A DNA stretch of 61,362 bases, counting the filler, from Globobulimina sp. (taxonomy: Eukaryota), in assembly GCA_003354225.1 (NCBI GenBank). It is 20 parts of 20 records of this genome, joined end to end, with 100 filler letters (N's around TTAATTAATTAA, not from the genome) between each part and the next. Parts side by side here need not be neighbours in the genome. Positions count along the whole stretch, not along the records: positions 52,252 to 55,222 come from PIVH01004186.1; 19 more parts are not named here. The stretch is one strand, 5' to 3'. Below are positions 1-55,634 of the stretch, piece by piece (position 1 is the first letter of the stretch; the number at the start of each line of letters is the position of its first letter). Below the pieces are notes generated by a model. It worked only from the letters and a program-made list of their open reading frames with translations. It had not been told where the DNA came from and did not search any database. A program made the translations under genes and the position numbers.

Positions 1-392
1 ATAGCGTTGTCATATGACCGTATATTGTTTCTATTTGTCCATATTGTGGTTGCAAATTAATGGTATTTACAGCACAATTGGTACAAAGACAGACGCTCTA
101 CTTTAAGGTTTGCCGTACGCATTTCTAATTTCTTGCCATATACGTGATATGAATAAAAGTGTTGAATGAATCTGATGAATAGTCATGGATTCATTTGGAT
201 AAACCCGAAAACACACAAAAACACCGATCTTAAGTACACAACTATTGTATATAGGGATTACTGGAATAATATAACTGGATACTAATATTAATGATTTCTT
301 AGTGTTTTTCTGTCATTACTAAACAAAGAAAAAGTAACTTTAAAAAAACCGTTATTTTTTCAAACATACGTACATACGACAAGGTGCTGAAC

Positions 393-1466
393 ATGGGTTG
401 TAAAGATCATCTTTATGGGAGGTTGGAATGGGAGGTTGGAACTGGGATTGTTAAATTTCCTTTGGCATTGCTAATAACAATTATTGGAATTCATGGAATA
501 TATTTGACAGTGAACAAGAAAAAAGCACATAAATGGATATCGATTGCCACTGTTATTTTCTTTATATCATCAACTACTTTTGTATTATATGCTACATTTC
601 AGACTTTGTTTCTTTGTTTTGGGGGGTTACCATTTGGAAGATCTCAACGTGCTTTTATGATTGTACTTGCATTTCATAATGTTGTTTATGGAACCCATTA
701 TTGTACACTAATCATTGTGTTATTTACGAGAGTAAAGGTCTCATTCGATGGCACATCATATCAATTTTCAACATGTTCATCTTATTGTTACAAAACAATA
801 TCGTGTTGCTGTTTTATGTTATTTACGGTAATGTTCTTGGCAATTTGTGTTGTTTCTGGACGAATAGTTTCCCTTTTTCTCGGGTCAATATTCGTGTTTT
901 TATTTTGTTCTGGATTGGTGTATCAATCATTATTTTGGTTATTTTATTCGAAATTAAAAAAGGTGCTTCGAAAATCGAGTAGCAGTGGTAAATCCGATAA
1001 GAAATTACGAAAAGTAATGATGAAAAATGTATTATTGTCATCGTTTAGCATCATTGGAACAGCCTTCTGGATTTTTATGATCTTATTTTGTTATTCAGTG
1101 CCACGTGCCGGCGGCGTAGCAGGTTTAAATTTATATGGCATGGCGCAGAATATTGATGTATTTCTAAATTGTATATGTATTTATTTAACAATGAAAGGCA
1201 CAGAAAGGACGTATAATAGATATTGTGGGAGGATACATAAAATATATAGCAAAACATGTTGTGGTATTACCAATGATGAGGATATGATTAAAGGAGGCAT
1301 TGAATTACAAGCAGCACGTTCAAACTCTGCAGATACAGTATACTCTGACTCAACAGTAACAAATACAGGAAAGTCATGTCCAGATTTCTCAGCAACAAAC
1401 ACCGAAAATACAGAAAAGTCACGTACAGATTTCTCAGCAACAAACACTGAAAATACAAATGTTTAA
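393..1466 (+). CDS. Seven-transmembrane (GPCR-like) protein of unknown family
   Basis: About 7 hydrophobic segments, a basic loop (KLKKVLRK...KKLRK) between the later helices and a Cys-containing Ser/Thr tail. First ATG is at 393. Confidence 0.65.
   Translation: MGCKDHLYGRLEWEVGTGIVKFPLALLITIIGIHGIYLTVNKKKAHKWISIATVIFFISSTTFVLYATFQTLFLCFGGLPFGRSQRAFMIVLAFHNVVYGTHYCTLIIVLFTRVKVSFDGTSYQFSTCSSYCYKTISCCCFMLFTVMFLAICVVSGRIVSLFLGSIFVFLFCSGLVYQSLFWLFYSKLKKVLRKSSSSGKSDKKLRKVMMKNVLLSSFSIIGTAFWIFMILFCYSVPRAGGVAGLNLYGMAQNIDVFLNCICIYLTMKGTERTYNRYCGRIHKIYSKTCCGITNDEDMIKGGIELQAARSNSADTVYSDSTVTNTGKSCPDFSATNTENTEKSRTDFSATNTENTNV
1361..1457 (+). repeat. 45-bp coding tandem duplication in the 7TM C-tail
   Basis: NTGKSCPDFSATNTE / NTEKSRTDFSATNTE; cagatttctcagcaacaaacac occurs twice, 45 bp apart. 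Confidence 0.9.
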
Positions 1467-37543: not shown

Positions 37544-39784
37544 ATGAATCTTTTTTCCAAACTCATACCGATCATTTGGACATTTTTTCCAAACTTTTTT
37601 CCAAATATAAGTGCCCTATATATGCGCCATTTGGACATTGAAACGCTTAACCAACGTTCCAATGGTCATTATTTCCCGTCTCATCGCGACCCATACAAAC
37701 TATTTGTGCAAAATAGTGGGTTGTCGCACCTCTCCAAAGTGGAATTACGGCAATTGTTGGATAAGACCGACCACTATTTAATGATGTATGAAAATGAGTC
37801 CGCATTACCACCGCAGTACACCGCATGGTACGATGGATATGACAGCGAAAACGTAACACATCAGAAGTCATTACTCGCGAATGATGTGTTTGATTCTGAT
37901 GCATCTAATGAATGGATGCCATCGTCAAATCCAAAAACGACTGTGTCTTCCTCGGATACTGACGGCAATGACTCATTTGTGGCACGAAAACGGAAGCAAA
38001 AGCGACGATTAAATAAGAAATTTCGATCGAAGTCACGCAAGGCTAAATCCAAGGCTAGATTGAAGCCAAAATCGAAGCGCAAAAATCGCACATTTATTGC
38101 ACCTGTGAAGCGTACATTGGCCACGCCTAATTCACATCAAATTGTGCCCGAATCTGGCATAAAACCACGCAAAAATAAGCGAAAGCGCGCAGTATTCGAA
38201 TCCATAGATACAATTCCTTCAAATAATATCTATACCAGTCAGAATCAGGGAAGGACTGCTGCAATCGCTGATAAGATTGCTCCACAACCTGTGTTGACCC
38301 TGCCTGACTTGAATTTCCTAATTCAGAATACGTCTAACGACAAACAAGAGATGGATATTAGCGATAATGAGCAGAAACAAAGTCACAAACCTGTGCCAAA
38401 TGCGCCAAAACGTGCAAATCGTAAGTTTTACCCGCCACCGGCACCAAACTGTGATGCTTTCGAAACTCTGCGCAATATTCCCTCTCCGCCACGCTATGAA
38501 CGACCCAAGCACGATTATATCAAATCCCGAGAATTGCCTTGGGCAATGCGTAAATCTACGGTACGGCAACATAGGCCTGTCCAACGCCATAAACGCATGT
38601 CAGTACGCCCAAATGACGGACTATCCAATGCTGATTTGAAGGCACCATTGAATAGAGATATAAGGCAGGGATGTATCGATAATAATAAGTCCGATAATCA
38701 GCAAATCTTTGAGGACAAACCCACCGAGCATATTTGGAACGCCAATACATTACTCCCTCGCTTTGAAATCCCCATCGCTGATTATGGCAATGTTTTGTGT
38801 AGCGACACACACTACAGTCGGACTTTGATACGTCTCAAACAAAGGGAAGATCCACACATTTGGGGCATCATTCATTACCTTAAAACCGGCAATAATCTGA
38901 TTCCCAACGATTTCCCTATGTATTTGAAACGTTTTATGTTGGCTGGCAGATATGATTTGGATGTGAATGACATACTTGTGTGGAAACACGGCAATGGTAA
39001 ACATCGTTTACGCGTGATACCACCCGCGCTCCGCCAGTCATTGATTGACCATTTGCATACGGGTCACAGCGCCCTACGCCACCCACAAGTGCACCATTTC
39101 CACCACGGCAGTCAGAAAATGCTGTCCATTCTCAAAAACACTTTGAATTATTGTTGGCCTAAGGTTGAGCACCACATCAAAACGCATTGCATATGTTGCA
39201 ACACATGTCAGCATGTCAAACCTGGCATTTACCGCAAATGGCGACGCGGAGGTCAAATGAAGCTTTTCGTTGCCACTCGACCGTTTGAACAAATATCTGT
39301 GGACATCGTCGGTCCTTTGCCTACGAGCCATTCTGGTAATAGATATATTGTGTCAATGATTGACAGCTTCAGCCGTTATTGCATGCTCGTGCCCGTCAAA
39401 TCTGTCACTGTAATGGACGTAGTCCATTCAATTGATCGATGGATAACCACTTTTGGTCCGCCAAAATCTATTTTATCCGACAATGGCCCGCAATTTATTA
39501 GTAATATCTATAAAGATTACAATAAAAATTGCAGAGATGGCAATATAGGCATAAAAAGAAAATATACATCGACATATTACCCGCAAAGTAATGGGCAAAT
39601 TGAGCGAGTGCATCGTTGGATCAAAGAACGATTGGCATTGATAGCCTATGATGGCGCCAAAAACTTCGTTGACGGCACTGATGATTGGTCGGACTACCTC
39701 GGACTTATACAATATACCTATAATTCGACGCCAAATGGCATGACTACGTACAGTAGTGTTCCCGATAAGAGGTACGCATATTAG
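37544..39784 (+). mobile_element. Ty3/Gypsy-type integrase (HHCC + DDE core) of a truncated element
   Basis: HHG...CNTCQ zinc finger, PFEQISVDIVGPLP...NRYIVSMIDSFSRY, PKSILSDNGPQF, YPQSNGQIERVHR, YNSTP. Preceded by a long basic low-complexity region. Confidence 0.92.
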
Positions 39785-49622: not shown

Positions 49623-51440
49623 CTATTCTTCCATATCAGCATAGGGCATATCAACAATGGCAGTCATAAATGGAAAATGTGTCTTTTTACTCTTATTATT
49701 ATTTGATTGGATATCATTAATAAGAGCGAATTTGATTGGATCAGAATTGCCATTCGCTTCAATACATTTCACTTTGATATCATAGATATAATTTTGATTC
49801 GGTACTAATAATGGTATTTTTAATATTGCTCGATTTATTTTATAAAATGTATCATTAAACATGACAATCAGAGCAATAAATGAGATATGAACTTTTCCCA
49901 TATTTTTTAATGTAATTTGCAACGTAAACCATGGTCCTAAGCCTATAACTTTTACATTTAACAAGATATTACTATTATTATTCATACATCCCGCACCATT
50001 TTTTTTTAATGTATTGATATATCGATTATTGATTTTTAGCCGGAATTTAACAATTTCTTGCTGCCAAATCTTATGCATACTTTCTGCATTTTCTTTTTCA
50101 CGGTTTTCTTGATCTAAATACAATTGTGTTATGGCAGGCAAATTTAAGGGGATGTCTTGATCAGCAACACTATGCTTTTTATTTTCGCTGCGAATTTTAC
50201 TCAAATCACACCTTCGAGACATAATTTTTATATTTAAACATCCTGCGAGATTTAAAATAATTAACGTACATTCTTCACGTCCGTATTTACCAAATTTCAA
50301 TGCAGTGATCGGAGACTCATTCAATTCCAATAAATACAGTAAAACGTTATCTCTGTACATTGCAACGTTTCCGTTTTGAAAACCAATCAAAAATATATTT
50401 TCACCTTGAAATTTATTACCAATCATCGCTTCAATTGCGGTGATATTATGTTTAAAATACAACGACCATAACTTAACATTATTTCCTTTGATGTGATACG
50501 AATACAATGTTTTATTCAAACAAGAAACAATAATGCTTTTATTAAATGCAGTCATTGCAGTTATATTTGATTCTAATTCGATATTATTGCCTAATAACTT
50601 GCCATTGCGTATCGTGTATATCTTACTGGCTCTCGTGGCAATAATTAAGCGATAATCAATGGATAGCAACCCAATTACGGAGAGAATAAAGGGCACCGAT
50701 GGTATTCTGATGGTTTTTTTAATTAAAGCACCGGCTGAATCTAAAAATATAATGTCGTTATTTTCTGTTCCAATAATTAAGGAAGAAACTGAATTACTTT
50801 GAGCTTCTTCTTTTTTTATTGAGGTCATACAAGTAATGCATGTATTCATTATTAATTCCGATGGTTTATACGATTCGATGTATTTTAATTGTTCTACTCG
50901 ATCGTTGATGGACAGTATAAACATTGTACGAAAGGTTAATAACTCATTATCAAAATGCAGTTTTTTTAATAAATTTAGAGTTTCTTCAATAGAAATATCA
51001 TCACAGCGGCATGAATTCCAAATATTTAATTCTGAAGAATTTAGCGGAATTGTCGGCAATGAAAATTTAAAATATGGTCGCATCGATCTGTAAATGTAAA
51101 CATTAGAACCTGTTGCTACGCCAACTGCAGGTAATGAGGAGGATATGTTTGATGGATAGAATACGGATAAACATGATGCATGATCTAAGAGCTTGTGTGA
51201 TGAAATTAAATTCATTCCACGAAAGACCTTCAGTCGTTTTGAATCATCTACAACTAATAAGGCATGATTTCCATCATTGGTAATATCTACAGTTGCAATA
51301 CGTGATGAGGTGGCTCGTAGATGGGCCATGGGATCGTACCAGGCATGCAGCCATGGACCGGATGAGGATGATATCTCTTGTAAGCGTGCTGGTGGAGAGG
51401 CTGCCTGGTTCATAATATCCCTTTCTTTCCGGTCATCCAT
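49623..51440 (-). CDS. BBS1: Bardet-Biedl syndrome 1 protein (BBSome subunit)
   Basis: WLHAWYDP, RLKVFRG, IYRSMRPYFKFSLP, LIIGTE, FGKYGREE, QDIPLNLP, GLGPWF, PLLVP; full-length and intronless. Confidence 0.96.
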   Translation of the reverse strand: MDDRKERDIMNQAASPPARLQEISSSSGPWLHAWYDPMAHLRATSSRIATVDITNDGNHALLVVDDSKRLKVFRGMNLISSHKLLDHASCLSVFYPSNISSSLPAVGVATGSNVYIYRSMRPYFKFSLPTIPLNSSELNIWNSCRCDDISIEETLNLLKKLHFDNELLTFRTMFILSINDRVEQLKYIESYKPSELIMNTCITCMTSIKKEEAQSNSVSSLIIGTENNDIIFLDSAGALIKKTIRIPSVPFILSVIGLLSIDYRLIIATRASKIYTIRNGKLLGNNIELESNITAMTAFNKSIIVSCLNKTLYSYHIKGNNVKLWSLYFKHNITAIEAMIGNKFQGENIFLIGFQNGNVAMYRDNVLLYLLELNESPITALKFGKYGREECTLIILNLAGCLNIKIMSRRCDLSKIRSENKKHSVADQDIPLNLPAITQLYLDQENREKENAESMHKIWQQEIVKFRLKINNRYINTLKKNGAGCMNNNSNILLNVKVIGLGPWFTLQITLKNMGKVHISFIALIVMFNDTFYKINRAILKIPLLVPNQNYIYDIKVKCIEANGNSDPIKFALINDIQSNNNKSKKTHFPFMTAIVDMPYADMEE

Positions 51441-52151: not shown

Positions 52152-52447
52152 NNNNNNNNNNNNNNNNNNNNNNNNNNNNNNNNNNNNNNNNNNNNTTAAT
52201 TAATTAANNNNNNNNNNNNNNNNNNNNNNNNNNNNNNNNNNNNNNNNNNNNGGTGAGGAGTGGGATGAGTACTTTTAATTAATCCACGCTCCCAGCAGGC
52301 AATTGACTAAGTGCTTTTTAAGTTGTTAAGTATTAGTAGCTAAGAAAAAGTTAGTTGGCACTAGTCAATTCTTTTTGCTGAATAAAAGAAGTTAAAAAAC
52401 CTTCTCACATTTTAATTGGAAACATTTCACAACTTTAACAAACAACA

Positions 52448-54523
52448 ATGAATCAATCCTATCAACATGAAAAAATCGAAGCTGTTGACCCATCCGAAGC
52501 AAATTACAGATTTGATACATTTGACGAAAAAGCAAAACAACATTTACATGAACAAGGATTTATTGTAATTAAAAGTGTATTACGAGAGAAAGAAATAATT
52601 TATGCCAAATCGTTATTATGGAATTATTTATCAGATTTAGGATGGAAACGAAATAACCCAAAGACATGGAACACGCATGTTATCAATGCAAAAGGTATAA
52701 TTTGGGCAGGTGCAGGACAGAGTAAATTGCAATGGTTCCTACGAAGCAGGCCCCGTATTATTAAAACATTTGCAGATGTTTGGTCAGCACAAGATATTTA
52801 TGCGAAACAAGGCATTATATTTGACTATAAACGAGATATTTTAACCTCAATGGACGGGTTTTCCGTATTTCGGCCATGGTATTTAAAGAATATCCCACAA
52901 GCATCGACATGGCGGACACAGAGTGGATGGTATCATATTGATCAAAATATCGCGAGATCCCCAGATATTGAAACTATTCAAGGTATTGTTACTTTATATG
53001 ACGAGGATAAGTCAACCGGATCGACCGTATTTGTACCTGGCTCACATAAGTGGGTAAACAAATTATTACCGAATTTGAGTGCTTATAAAGGAGATTTTGT
53101 GATGATACCACCCAAGAAATTGGCTGCTATGCATAAAAAAAAGATATTATTATGTTGTCGCGCCGGTGATTTGTTATTGTGGGATGCGAGATGTATTCAT
53201 TGTAATTCGCCTGCAATTATATCCACACAAGAAATGCGAAGAGTTCATGCCACAAAATTACAACAAAAATCTACAGAACATTATCAAGAAAAAAATGAAG
53301 AAAAAAATGAAGAAAAAAGTGTGAACATTAATAAAACCGAAAGGGATTTTATACAAAGTATGAACAGAAAGTATTTAAAACCTAAAATTAGCAAAACTTT
53401 GCATGGAATGAAGAATAAAATAGTATATAATGGGTATAGCGCAGATGTTATATTATGGGAGAATTTTAATGAAAAGTTATTTACGAACAATAAATCGTAT
53501 TTAATTTGCTTACCATGGAATACATCCATTTTATGGATACCTAAATGGATCGACAAAACCACTGGCAATAATTTGAAAAAAGTAATCATTGAAAAAATAA
53601 AGTTCCAGCAACCAACGCTTCGATTTGATGTTAAAAATAAAAATGGAGAAATTATCGGAGTTAAACAAGTGAAACAAAATCGTAAAACAGCATGGATTTG
53701 TAACAATTTTAATCAATGTGTACAGAACCGTGGAGATACAGATGTTTTACCTGCCATTGAGTTGGAAGAATGGTCCGACTGTTTACTAAAACATGCCTCT
53801 GATACCGCTGCAAACAAATTCAATGCCATGTTACTGATTCAATATTTAAATGGTAGCAACAGTATCAGTTTACATTCAGATAATGATTATGGACTGGGCC
53901 TAGATCCAACGATCGGATCGTTATCTTTAGGCCAGAAACGAACATTTTTTATAAAGTCCAAGCAAATTTATCATGAAAGCGGCACGAAAATTGAGATTCG
54001 AATACCATTAATTCATGGCTCATTTGTTTTGATGGACGCATTGTTTCAGAATTTTTGGTTACATTCCATACCAAAAGAAAAAGAAATGAGTGGGGAGAGA
54101 ATAAATATAACATTTAGAAAATATGCATTGGAGAGAGATGAAGTTAAAAAAGATGTGCTGGATGTTTTGGACGTGGATAATATTAATATTCCATCTGTAT
54201 TAAGGGGCGCATCGTTTATTTGTATGACACCGAAATTAAAAGTAAAATCAAAAGATATTATAAGACAAAGAATTGCGGCGTACGAGACATTATCGACATG
54301 TTCGCATTGGCCACATAAATGTCACATTTTATATAAACCGAGGAATATAAATAAAGGATTGCATATAAATGATGTGACGGATGAGTTAATTAAGAGTTTG
54401 ATTGGAGTGGATATGTTAGCGGATAAGAAATATGACCATCTTAATGGTAAACAACCAATAAATGATACATATAAATGGAAAAAAAATAAATATAAAAAAA
54501 CTAAAAAATCTAAATACATTTGA
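52448..54523 (+). CDS. Double 2OG/Fe(II) dioxygenase: PhyH-like domain with a nested AlkB (ALKBH2/3-like) domain
   Basis: PhyH part: EQGFIVIK, WYHIDQ, PGSH, AGDLLLWDARCIHCN, resuming at LRGASFICMTP...CSHWPH. AlkB part: YLNGSNSISLHSD...IGSLSLG...HGS...WLHSIPK...RINITFR. Confidence 0.88.
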   Translation: MNQSYQHEKIEAVDPSEANYRFDTFDEKAKQHLHEQGFIVIKSVLREKEIIYAKSLLWNYLSDLGWKRNNPKTWNTHVINAKGIIWAGAGQSKLQWFLRSRPRIIKTFADVWSAQDIYAKQGIIFDYKRDILTSMDGFSVFRPWYLKNIPQASTWRTQSGWYHIDQNIARSPDIETIQGIVTLYDEDKSTGSTVFVPGSHKWVNKLLPNLSAYKGDFVMIPPKKLAAMHKKKILLCCRAGDLLLWDARCIHCNSPAIISTQEMRRVHATKLQQKSTEHYQEKNEEKNEEKSVNINKTERDFIQSMNRKYLKPKISKTLHGMKNKIVYNGYSADVILWENFNEKLFTNNKSYLICLPWNTSILWIPKWIDKTTGNNLKKVIIEKIKFQQPTLRFDVKNKNGEIIGVKQVKQNRKTAWICNNFNQCVQNRGDTDVLPAIELEEWSDCLLKHASDTAANKFNAMLLIQYLNGSNSISLHSDNDYGLGLDPTIGSLSLGQKRTFFIKSKQIYHESGTKIEIRIPLIHGSFVLMDALFQNFWLHSIPKEKEMSGERINITFRKYALERDEVKKDVLDVLDVDNINIPSVLRGASFICMTPKLKVKSKDIIRQRIAAYETLSTCSHWPHKCHILYKPRNINKGLHINDVTDELIKSLIGVDMLADKKYDHLNGKQPINDTYKWKKNKYKKTKKSKYI

Positions 54524-54574
54524 AGAAAAATATTAAATTTGAAAGCTGTTTTTTTTTCATCAACAAAATATACC

Positions 54575-55222
54575 ATGGCACGTGCTTCAGATTGCGTCAA
54601 AGTCGCGATACGAGTTTAGTAACACGATCCTATTCATAGCCAAAGCACAAAACAACATATAACCCTCTTAAAGGTGCGTCCATTGATCGGCGTTGAAATC
54701 GCCAAAGGTGACAACGAATGCGTCGTCTCGTACCCCCAACAAGACAGAGCGCCGCAAATCCAAATCGGTGGCGACAAATGTTTCACGTTCGACTACCTAT
54801 TCAGCGATACTTCGCAACAAAAGCAAGTGTACGACACCGCCATCAAACCCTTAGTCCACTCCTTCCTCGAAGGCTACAACGCCACCGTCATCGCCTACGG
54901 CCAAACCGGCTCCGGCAAAACCTACACGATGGGCACGTTGGGCTGCGACGATGCCAAATTGCAGGAAGAATGGGGCGTCATTCCATCCGCCATCCACGAC
55001 ATCTTCAACACACTCAACAATAACCACAACAACGACAACAACGACGATTACAAAATCCAGTGCTCCTTCATCGAGATCTACAACGAAGAGATCAAGGACT
55101 TATTGGATCCGCGCACTGCCAAATCCATGCAAATTCGCGAAAATGTGGGCGGGCCCTCAAAAATCCATATCCCTAATATGAAATTGGAAGTGGTGCAGAA
55201 TTCCATGGACTTGGCAGAGGCT
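54575..55222 (+). CDS. Kinesin motor domain, kinesin-4 (KIF4/21/27)-like, 3'-truncated (intron 54614-54673)
   Basis: DCVKVAIR-VRPL, FTFD, EGYNATVIAYGQTGSGKTYTMG, SFIEIYNEEIKDLL. Confidence 0.93.
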
Positions 55223-55634
55223 NNNNNNNNNNNNNNNNNNNNNNNNNNNNNNNNNNNNNNNNNNNNTTAATTAATTAANNNNNNNNNNNNNNNNNNNNNN
55301 NNNNNNNNNNNNNNNNNNNNNNACTTTGAATACTAGGTCAACTTCGAATACTAGGTTGAAAACCACTCTAGCTAACCCAAAAACATTGCCAATCACAAAA
55401 GAAGTGTTTACAAGTTTAAGCCTAAAAAGTCATAAAAGTCAAATGTGTTAAAATATTAAAAGAGAATTCCATTCAATTTTTAAATGGAGAAATAAATTTC
55501 AAATATTCCATCAGGCAGTGCATGCAATTTCGGAAAAATAGAAATCCTGCACTGTGCGTGCTATGTGGGTCATTTTGCATTGCGTGCAATTTTTAAATTC
55601 AACATAAAAAATTAAAAATGATCAAAAAAGTTAT

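Follow-up and report, generated by a model that had tools for sequence, protein, structure and literature searches.

A PhyH-like dioxygenase of Globobulimina sp. that probably carries a complete ALKBH2/3-type domain between two strands of its core

Introduction

To our knowledge, Fe(II)/2-oxoglutarate (2OG) oxygenases are nearly always enzymes with a single double-stranded beta-helix (DSBH). By 2015 the uS12 prolyl hydroxylases (OGFOD1/Tpa1p/Ofd1) were, in the portion of the source available, the only 2OG oxygenases identified with tandem DSBH domains (PMC4396695). The subject of this report is an open reading frame (ORF) in a 61,362-nucleotide stretch of DNA from Globobulimina sp. (assembly GCA_003354225.1), joined from 20 parts of 20 records and called the window hereafter, which likewise places two DSBH domains in one polypeptide. 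The arrangement is a different one: in OGFOD1/Tpa1p/Ofd1 the domains stand in tandem and, as far as the same excerpt goes, the C-terminal DSBH has no metal site (PMC4396695), whereas here one domain is nested in the other, both motif sets are complete and the families are unrelated. The reading that we consider likely is that of a discontinuous PhyH-like dioxygenase with a complete ALKBH2/3-type domain nested between its strands VII and VIII, both Fe/2OG sets being intact.

The fold of the host domain is shared by the PhyH-clan proteins YbiU/DUF1479 and Gig2 (4rgk, 7twe, 2csg, 6akz), KanJ, PrhA, FtmOx1, SnoK and EctD. In these known enzymes the connection between strands VII and VIII is a loop, whereas here it holds a 244-residue catalytic domain together with its linkers. 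For the insert, the closest described systems are ALKBH3 and ALKBH2, which carry out the oxidative demethylation of alkylated bases such as 1-methyladenine and 3-methylcytosine. They have the same fold, HxD...H triad and RxNxTxR motif, but are 22-27% identical to the insert and free-standing, whereas the domain described here is embedded in the loop of another enzyme and has Ile in place of a canonical Asn. That PhyH-type enzymes can serve nucleic-acid-related metabolism is illustrated by PHYHD1/FJS (PhyH family, PF05721), which according to the available part of the report demethylate 2'-O-methyl nucleosides (PMC12709175). The analogy is functional only: PHYHD1 is not among the PDB sequence matches of the whole protein, nor among those of the family profile (E <=1), which leaves a distant kinship possible. 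A literature search, with incomplete coverage of subscription journals and supplements, found no published PhyH-AlkB fusion or nested 2OG oxygenase. The chemistry of both domain families is known; the arrangement is the unusual part.

Layout of the open reading frame

The ORF occupies 52448-54523 of the plus strand and runs from an ATG through 691 codons to the stop without an internal stop codon, a stop-free run expected by chance with a probability of about 3e-23 from the base composition of the window (33% G+C). No second copy of the dioxygenase gene was found within the window. The 691-aa product (P0001 in the comparisons below) matches two Pfam families above their cut-offs. The AlkB-type profile 2OG-FeII_Oxy_2 (PF13532) covers aa 362-557 (nt 53531-54118) with 76.4 bits against a cut-off of 31.2 (E 4.5e-21) and is itself spanned from position 3 to 194 of 194, which makes this a full-length domain. 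The PhyH profile (PF05721) matches aa 162-265 with 39.8 bits against a cut-off of 22, over profile positions 111-212 of 213. A match to the SCAP beta-propeller, which at 15.1 bits lies far below its cut-off of 100, was discarded as noise, and NCBIfam holds no family above its cut-off for the 691-aa protein or for four insert-free relatives. The features of the ORF are as follows, with predicted local distance difference test (pLDDT) scores from the structural model described below.

52448-54523, plus strand: whole ORF, nested two-domain Fe(II)/2OG dioxygenase, 691 aa and stop (ORF, Pfam)
52448-53263, plus strand: PhyH-like host domain, N part, aa 1-272, through DSBH strand VII (Pfam PhyH; pLDDT 85-98; matched by 144 of 240 relatives)
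52934-52942, plus strand: host HxD iron ligands H163-I-D165 (HID; motif; H163 and D165 nearly invariant in 104 rows)
53198-53200, plus strand: host distal iron ligand H251 (WDARCIHCN), on strand 251-254 (motif, alignment, model)
53225-53398, plus strand: N-side linker, aa 260-317, with helices 260-291 and 296-309 and low-complexity NEEKNEEK (DSSP on model)
53399-54130, plus strand: inserted ALKBH2/3-like domain, aa 318-561 (Pfam, PDB sequence matches, structural alignment)
53873-53881, plus strand: AlkB HxD iron ligands H476-S-D478 (motif; aligns to the HxD of ALKBH3/ALKBH2)
54062-54064, plus strand: AlkB distal iron ligand H539 (WLHS; motif, ALKBH3/ALKBH2 alignment)
54098-54118, plus strand: AlkB 2OG-binding motif RINITFR, aa 551-557, with R551 and R557 (motif, ALKBH3/ALKBH2 alignment)
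54131-54196, plus strand: C-side linker, aa 562-583, with helix 562-571 at pLDDT <50 (model)
54197-54451, plus strand: host domain, C part, aa 584-668, with strand VIII (586-595), CMTP, R608, SHWPH and LIG (homology; pLDDT 91-98)
54203-54205, plus strand: presumed 2OG-binding R586 (LRGAS) on strand VIII (nearly invariant in the alignment)
aa 619-623, plus strand: SHWPH motif (motif position)
54452-54520, plus strand: Lys-rich C-terminal tail, aa 669-691, predicted disordered (pLDDT 31-42)

The Fe/2OG motif set (HxD...H...R) is complete in the PhyH-like host and in the AlkB domain alike. A preliminary description of this locus, made from the DNA alone, had reported an uninterrupted ORF with all of the named motifs, two intact HxD...H sets, an Arg-bearing strand about 330 residues after the distal His, and a complete ALKBH2/3-like domain at about 53520-54120 in the gap between them. 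Every motif lies where it was placed, 335 residues separate H251 from R586, and the full-length Pfam match falls within the predicted interval. The same description had expected the PhyH profile to be split by the insert. Both families do score above their cut-offs, but the PhyH match is a single segment that ends at aa 265, before the insert.

Contiguous flanks in the relatives

If the AlkB domain lies inside the host rather than next to it, the two flanks should be found side by side elsewhere. The comparison covered 240 other proteins by piecewise BLASTP, with the query cut into an N part (1-275), the insert (276-575) and the tail (576-691). The N part and the tail occur without the insert, and with a short gap between them, in 100 of the 240; 44 match the N part only and 92 the insert only. 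All three pieces are present in two relatives (P0002, P0004), and the insert with the tail in two more (P0003, P0098). The nested architecture is thus read from flanks that are contiguous in 100 of 240 relatives and from an insert that is a complete domain.

An alignment of 104 host-domain rows gives the same picture residue by residue. AlkB-only proteins were left out of it because MAFFT had put them onto the PhyH part, and a length limit of 470 aa excluded P0166, P0168, P0163 and P0234. Seven positions (H163, D165, H251, R586, P595, R608 and H620) are each conserved in 90% or more of the rows. The distal His and the Arg are both aligned in 98 of the 104, the other six being fragments without one of the two columns. 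The distance between them is 15-99 residues in the 95 insert-free rows and 334, 355 and 363 in the three nested ones (median 23 across all 98), in agreement with the earlier statement that a short variable loop normally separates these residues.

The closest insert-free relatives (P0088, P0095, P0097, P0116, P0147 and P0109) are 43-60% identical in the flanks and keep both of them, with no AlkB domain. In these relatives IHCNSPA...EMxxVH is followed by 25-76 low-complexity residues and then by LLRxVSYICMxPKxKVK...TCSHWP...KSLIG; the flanks of the nested proteins are identical in layout, with the AlkB domain between them. Even the first helix of the N-side linker, EMxxVH after the distal His, is retained in the insert-free relatives, and the insert-free sisters P0095, P0116 and P0147 share with the nested proteins both this helix and a Lys/Arg (K/R)-rich end.

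Such K/R-rich C-terminal ends are found in P0003, P0004, P0095, P0116 and P0147 besides the Globobulimina protein. They resemble nuclear localization signals and are specific to the subclade that unites the nested proteins with their insert-free sisters; family members further away end immediately after LIG. Judging from its composition, the tail may serve nuclear import or contact with nucleic acid.

The His-Arg loop is also expanded in P0166 (about 332 residues), P0168 (221), P0163 (157) and P0234 (504). As further nested cases these four were rejected, their loops being A/E/G/S/D-rich low complexity with no Pfam domain. Since low-complexity expansions of 157-504 residues have arisen in other family members, the loop is a hot spot for expansion in the host family.

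Predicted structure

The structures considered here are AlphaFold2 models. The Globobulimina protein, modelled from the 104-row alignment, reached a mean pLDDT of 84.1 and a predicted template-modelling score (pTM) of 0.67, and the segment 580-660 beyond the insert was placed with a pLDDT of 91-98. In the model, the strand with the distal His (251-254) is followed by helices 260-291 and 296-309, the AlkB domain (324-557), helix 562-571 and finally the strand with R586 (586-595). A second model, of the 61% identical homologue P0002, had a pLDDT of 79.9 overall and again more than 90 in the tail.

Structural alignment with VIA-align, run on the top 1000 PDB chains of Foldseek, recovered both enzyme families from the same model. 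ALKBH3 (8jnk_A) matched model residues 341..561 with 197 of 203 residues aligned, a Z of 21.9 and a root-mean-square deviation (rmsd) of 2.6; for ALKBH3 and ALKBH2 the scores were Z 21.9 and 20.9, with rmsd 2.6-2.8 over 197-199 residues. On the host side, YbiU (4rgk) matched 16..655 (Z 21.5, rmsd 3.7, 285 aligned), Gig2 (6akz) 8..670 (Z 21.0, rmsd 3.9, 295 aligned) and KanJ (6s0t_D) 9..655 (Z 18.1, rmsd 3.5, 244 of 278 aligned, chain -1..268). The P0002 model behaved in the same way, with YbiU at Z 22.0 (28..701), ALKBH3 at Z 21.7 (390..613) and KanJ at Z 18.4 (21..700). Foldseek alone, which aligns locally, ranked ALKBH3/2 first and KanJ next.

Because the PhyH-family chains span the model from about residue 10 to 655 with fewer than 300 residues aligned, their alignments must skip an insert of about 300 residues and resume in the tail. 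The models thus support a host in which the two flanks together form a complete PhyH-type DSBH fold, and an insert with the AlkB/ALKBH fold, its N-terminal lid region included. Whether the distal strand completes the first barrel had been posed as a check by structure prediction, and it came out in favour: two models place the tail confidently, and PhyH chains align across the insert.

Integrity of the gene

Contigs from four coded sequencing runs (X1, X2, X6 and X8) were compared over 52300-54700. In X6 one contig of 2078 nt extends uninterrupted over 52475-54496 and differs by 72 substitutions and 40 gap letters; contigs of X8 and X2 tile both borders of the insert in overlapping or abutting pieces; those of X1, which is possibly the source sample, leave 53613-53842 uncovered. 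No joint was found inside the ORF in the contigs of the four runs, and coverage at the two borders, raised from the start as a point to be checked, is provided by contigs of other runs that cross both. The only joints belong to a 60-nt GT..AG intron (54614-54673) of the next gene, a kinesin, which is spliced out in X2 and X6, so the contigs of these two runs appear to include RNA-derived sequence.

The differences between strains are mostly synonymous. Three indels are in frame, +21 nt after 52460 at the N-terminus and, in the linkers, +24 nt after 53305 (N-side) and +15 nt after 54131 (C-side), the latter two in a contig of X6; the fourth, a 1-nt deletion at 54479, touches the Lys-rich end only. 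Among the 40 substitutions listed (51 more are unlisted), 26 fall on third, 12 on first and 2 on second codon positions. Across N part, AlkB part and tail, G+C at third codon positions (GC3) stays within 0.28-0.31. The ORF is under purifying selection along its whole length, and it is a real, expressed-looking single-exon gene.

Distribution and evolutionary history

The nested layout is seen directly in five sequences: P0001, P0002 (full length), P0003, P0004 and P0098. Three AlkB fragments (P0096, P0099 and P0110) fall in the same clade as the nested AlkB domains. Among named sequences, the N part is closest to proteins from foraminiferal transcriptomes (71-76% identity; Bolivina, Bulimina, Nonionella). 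The one from Bolivina, P0085 with 331 aa, stops inside the N-side linker. At E <=0.001, 5348 representatives match one or the other domain, most of the best 150 matching the host; among these best 150 representatives of 1.84 billion proteins, only the small nested clade has a folded domain in the His-Arg loop. Searches for nested relatives gave 176 pattern matches in viral contigs and 360 and 8 in metagenome contigs, none of them confirmed. An Atlas search with the whole protein, which can serve only as a lead, returned scores <=0.84 and no cluster with both families; as leads of the same kind, Atlas clusters related to the PhyH-like family come from protists, rotifers, diatoms, bacteria and giant viruses.

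How did the insert get there? In the AlkB tree all domains of the nested set fall into a single clade (97/99), whose sister group (90/89) consists of the stand-alone AlkBs P0127, P0131, P0138 and P0158, a topology that shows a single origin of the insert. The host flanks are arranged differently. In a tree of 22 rows they group as (P0004,((P0001,P0002),(P0095,P0116))), with supports of 80/74 and 96/94, and a tree constrained to unite the three nested rows is worse by 6.6 log-likelihood units (approximately unbiased test, p = 0.043). P0095 and P0116 thus branch inside the nested clade (96/94) though they have no AlkB domain. Since the AlkB domain has a single origin and the host flanks are not monophyletic, the simplest history, and the most likely one on these trees, would be that the domain was inserted once and later disappeared from the P0095/P0116 line. 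Both proteins still carry YLxSSILNN, which resembles the nested N-linker YLKPKISKTL.

One further detail of the linker concerns M305 (53360-53362), which starts a conserved motif that reads SMNRKY here, IMKRKY in P0004 and SMNDNY in P0002. All three nested proteins that extend over this position have the Met, and the AlkB fragment P0099, which looks stand-alone, begins MNRKY. Speculatively, M305 may be the fossil start codon of a donor AlkB gene.

Probable activities of the two domains

Sequence searches of the PDB with the whole protein return ALKBH3/ALKBH2 only (16 of 16 matches, E down to 7.8e-17), and a four-sequence profile reaches the same enzymes with E down to 4.5e-22. The AlkB domain keeps H476, D478, H539, R551, R557 and Y466. 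Because these motifs are kept and the only PDB sequence relatives are ALKBH3/ALKBH2, base demethylation is the best inference: by analogy the domain probably demethylates bases of the 1-methyladenine/3-methylcytosine type in single-stranded DNA or RNA. Some more distant, eukaryote-like AlkB-only relatives (P0189, P0204, P0193, P0232) are fused to an aprataxin-like HIT domain (DcpS_C) with zf-C2HE, or to DUF488, fusions that suggest a repair-type context for the AlkB lineage.

For the host domain, PDB matches of the family profile include SnoK (E 2.1e-8) and EctD (E 5.4e-6); neither this search nor NCBIfam yielded a close characterised relative. Most bacterial members of the family are from marine Acidimicrobiales and Gammaproteobacteria (150 pattern matches, of which 141 were confirmed; 80 loci kept). 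In the 10 of these 80 loci whose neighbourhoods were examined, with 35 of 76 ORFs run through Pfam and with L025 and L028 being syntenic and not independent, the neighbours include an acyl-CoA-synthetase type protein, a second PhyH and a short-chain dehydrogenase/reductase (SDR) at three loci each, and an epoxide hydrolase and an enoyl-CoA hydratase at two each. At L016, L059 and L042 the gene of the host family stands beside a second PhyH paralogue, in the first two also beside an epoxide hydrolase; the PhyH pair with the epoxide hydrolase is possibly a conserved cassette for small-molecule oxidation. The host domain probably hydroxylates a substrate separate from that of AlkB.

Taken together, the proposed working of the protein would be as follows. 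The surface loop between strand VII, with the distal His, and strand VIII, with the Arg, carries the AlkB domain on two helical or low-complexity linkers, and each domain would bind its own Fe(II) and 2OG. The AlkB domain would probably remove alkyl groups from nucleic-acid bases while the host hydroxylates another substrate. The insertion most probably arose a single time, at a loop whose length varies naturally in the host family and is often great, and the insert would have been lost again in one sublineage, that of P0095/P0116.

Weighing the readings

Several observations weigh against two nested, independently active enzymes. The alignments behind the AlphaFold2 models contained insert-free homologues, so that the models share part of their basis with the homology argument; the VIA ranges give the first and last aligned residues only, the fold-back of the tail being deduced from aligned length against span; and a pTM of 0.65-0.67 does not fix how the domains are oriented to each other. 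All sequencing evidence consists of contigs whose RNA status is guessed. The nested sequences are few, four of the five being metagenome proteins, and on the host tree they do not form one clade, which calls for a secondary loss or a second gain. The bacterial context of the host family points to small-molecule or acyl-CoA oxidation, with no obvious link to nucleic-acid repair. Finally, I464 occupies the position 12 residues before the first His of the AlkB domain, where ALKBH2/3 and fungal AlkBs have Asn. The Asn of the NxY motif of the AlkB family, which we take to be a 2OG contact, is thus absent here while the Tyr (Y466) remains, and given Ile for Asn the activity of the AlkB domain is not assured.

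This last point leads to the alternative that one of the domains is catalytically inert, with AlkB acting as a nucleic-acid-binding or targeting module, or the PhyH-like shell as a carrier of AlkB. Across 22 sequences the position in question is I/V/L in all seven nested or nested-like ones. The four stand-alone relatives closest to them have His, and the remaining 11 sequences, five further AlkB-only relatives (three with HIT/zf-C2HE or DUF488 fusions) and six fungal AlkBs, have Asn; the nested clade thus differs from canonical AlkBs at this position. There is also a precedent, in that 2OG oxygenases reported with two DSBH domains have, in the part of the source available, a second domain with no metal site (PMC4396695). 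The metal and 2OG ligands speak the other way: H163, D165, H251 and R586 of the host, like H476, D478, H539, R551 and R557 of AlkB, are conserved in every nested sequence that covers them, and the differences between strains lie mostly at third codon positions in both parts (in seven of the eight listed for the AlkB core). We consider an inert domain doubtful on this balance.

It is likewise improbable, in our estimate, that the two sites act as a unit on one nucleic acid, the AlkB domain flipping a modified nucleotide and the PhyH-like domain performing a second oxidation. The target of the latter would then be, for example, a ribose methyl group or a hypermodified base of the same or a neighbouring nucleotide; the linkers would hold the PhyH-like domain beside AlkB, and the Lys-rich tail would perhaps do the steering. 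If true, this would be a two-step oxidative editing or repair enzyme of a kind not yet described. A coupling of demethylation or base modification to a second oxidation had also been put forward, with reserve, in the preliminary description; it is speculative.

A plain tandem fusion, with a PhyH domain completed before AlkB and an unrelated extension at the C-terminus, could draw on the PhyH profile being matched to position 212 of 213 by aa 265, and on R273/R274 following soon after the distal His. It is nevertheless very improbable: in 100 insert-free members the last 70-90 residues are homologous to the tail and come straight after the His strand; R586 is nearly invariant, with nothing at 273/274 among the conserved positions; and the structural alignments of entire PhyH-family chains extend to residue 655. 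The proposal made in the preliminary description, a domain insertion into a PhyH-like protein rather than an end-to-end fusion, is therefore supported by contiguous flanks in relatives, by two AlphaFold models and by the near-invariance of R586.

An artefact, be it an assembly chimera, a pseudogene in decay, or an intron or mobile element that lies in frame and is cut out of the mRNA, could be suspected from the N runs 200-300 nt upstream of the ORF, from the X1 gap at 53613-53842 and from the best DNA run being possibly the source sample itself, but has hardly any probability left, because contigs are uncut, indels mostly in frame, third positions favoured and GC3 uniform; contigs from runs made in other studies pass over both borders (X6 as one contig, X8 and X2 tiled), none has a joint in the ORF while the intron of the neighbouring gene is seen spliced out, the 691 codons are stop-free with strain differences biased to synonymous ones, and the same layout recurs in independent metagenome proteins at 44-62% identity.

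Other features of the window

The window also encodes BBS1, kinesin, PIP5K, Josephin and bromodomain proteins, a gene set that marks its source as a ciliated eukaryote. The kinesin motor gene, identified by Pfam, begins 52 nt after the stop codon of the dioxygenase, at 54576-54700, and contains the 60-nt GT..AG intron already mentioned. A complete single-exon gene for the BBSome subunit BBS1 lies at 49623-51440 on the minus strand. Its nearest named relatives come from the same foraminiferal transcriptome sets as those of the dioxygenase, at 71-73% identity, and because the next named ones drop to <=35% the lineage must be poorly sampled. A 746-aa ORF with an rve integrase core at 37544-39784 (plus strand) is probably part of a retrotransposon or retrovirus-like element. 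Runs of N, read as assembly gaps or masked stretches, are present shortly upstream of the dioxygenase ORF at 52152-52195 and 52208-52251 and within the kinesin gene at about 55226-55270, none of them in the ORF itself.

Significance

To specialists in 2OG oxygenases the surprise should lie in the topology and in the double active site, although the clade is small and does not alone open a long-standing question. The insertion shows the loop between strands VII and VIII to be a permissive site for engineering insertions. It presents a natural two-site oxygenase, the parts of which may share a supply of 2OG, iron or oxygen, or a substrate, and the loss of the insert in the sister lineage offers a natural comparison with and without it. 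For the large and uncharacterised PhyH-like family to which the host belongs, the nested protein is a functional lead.

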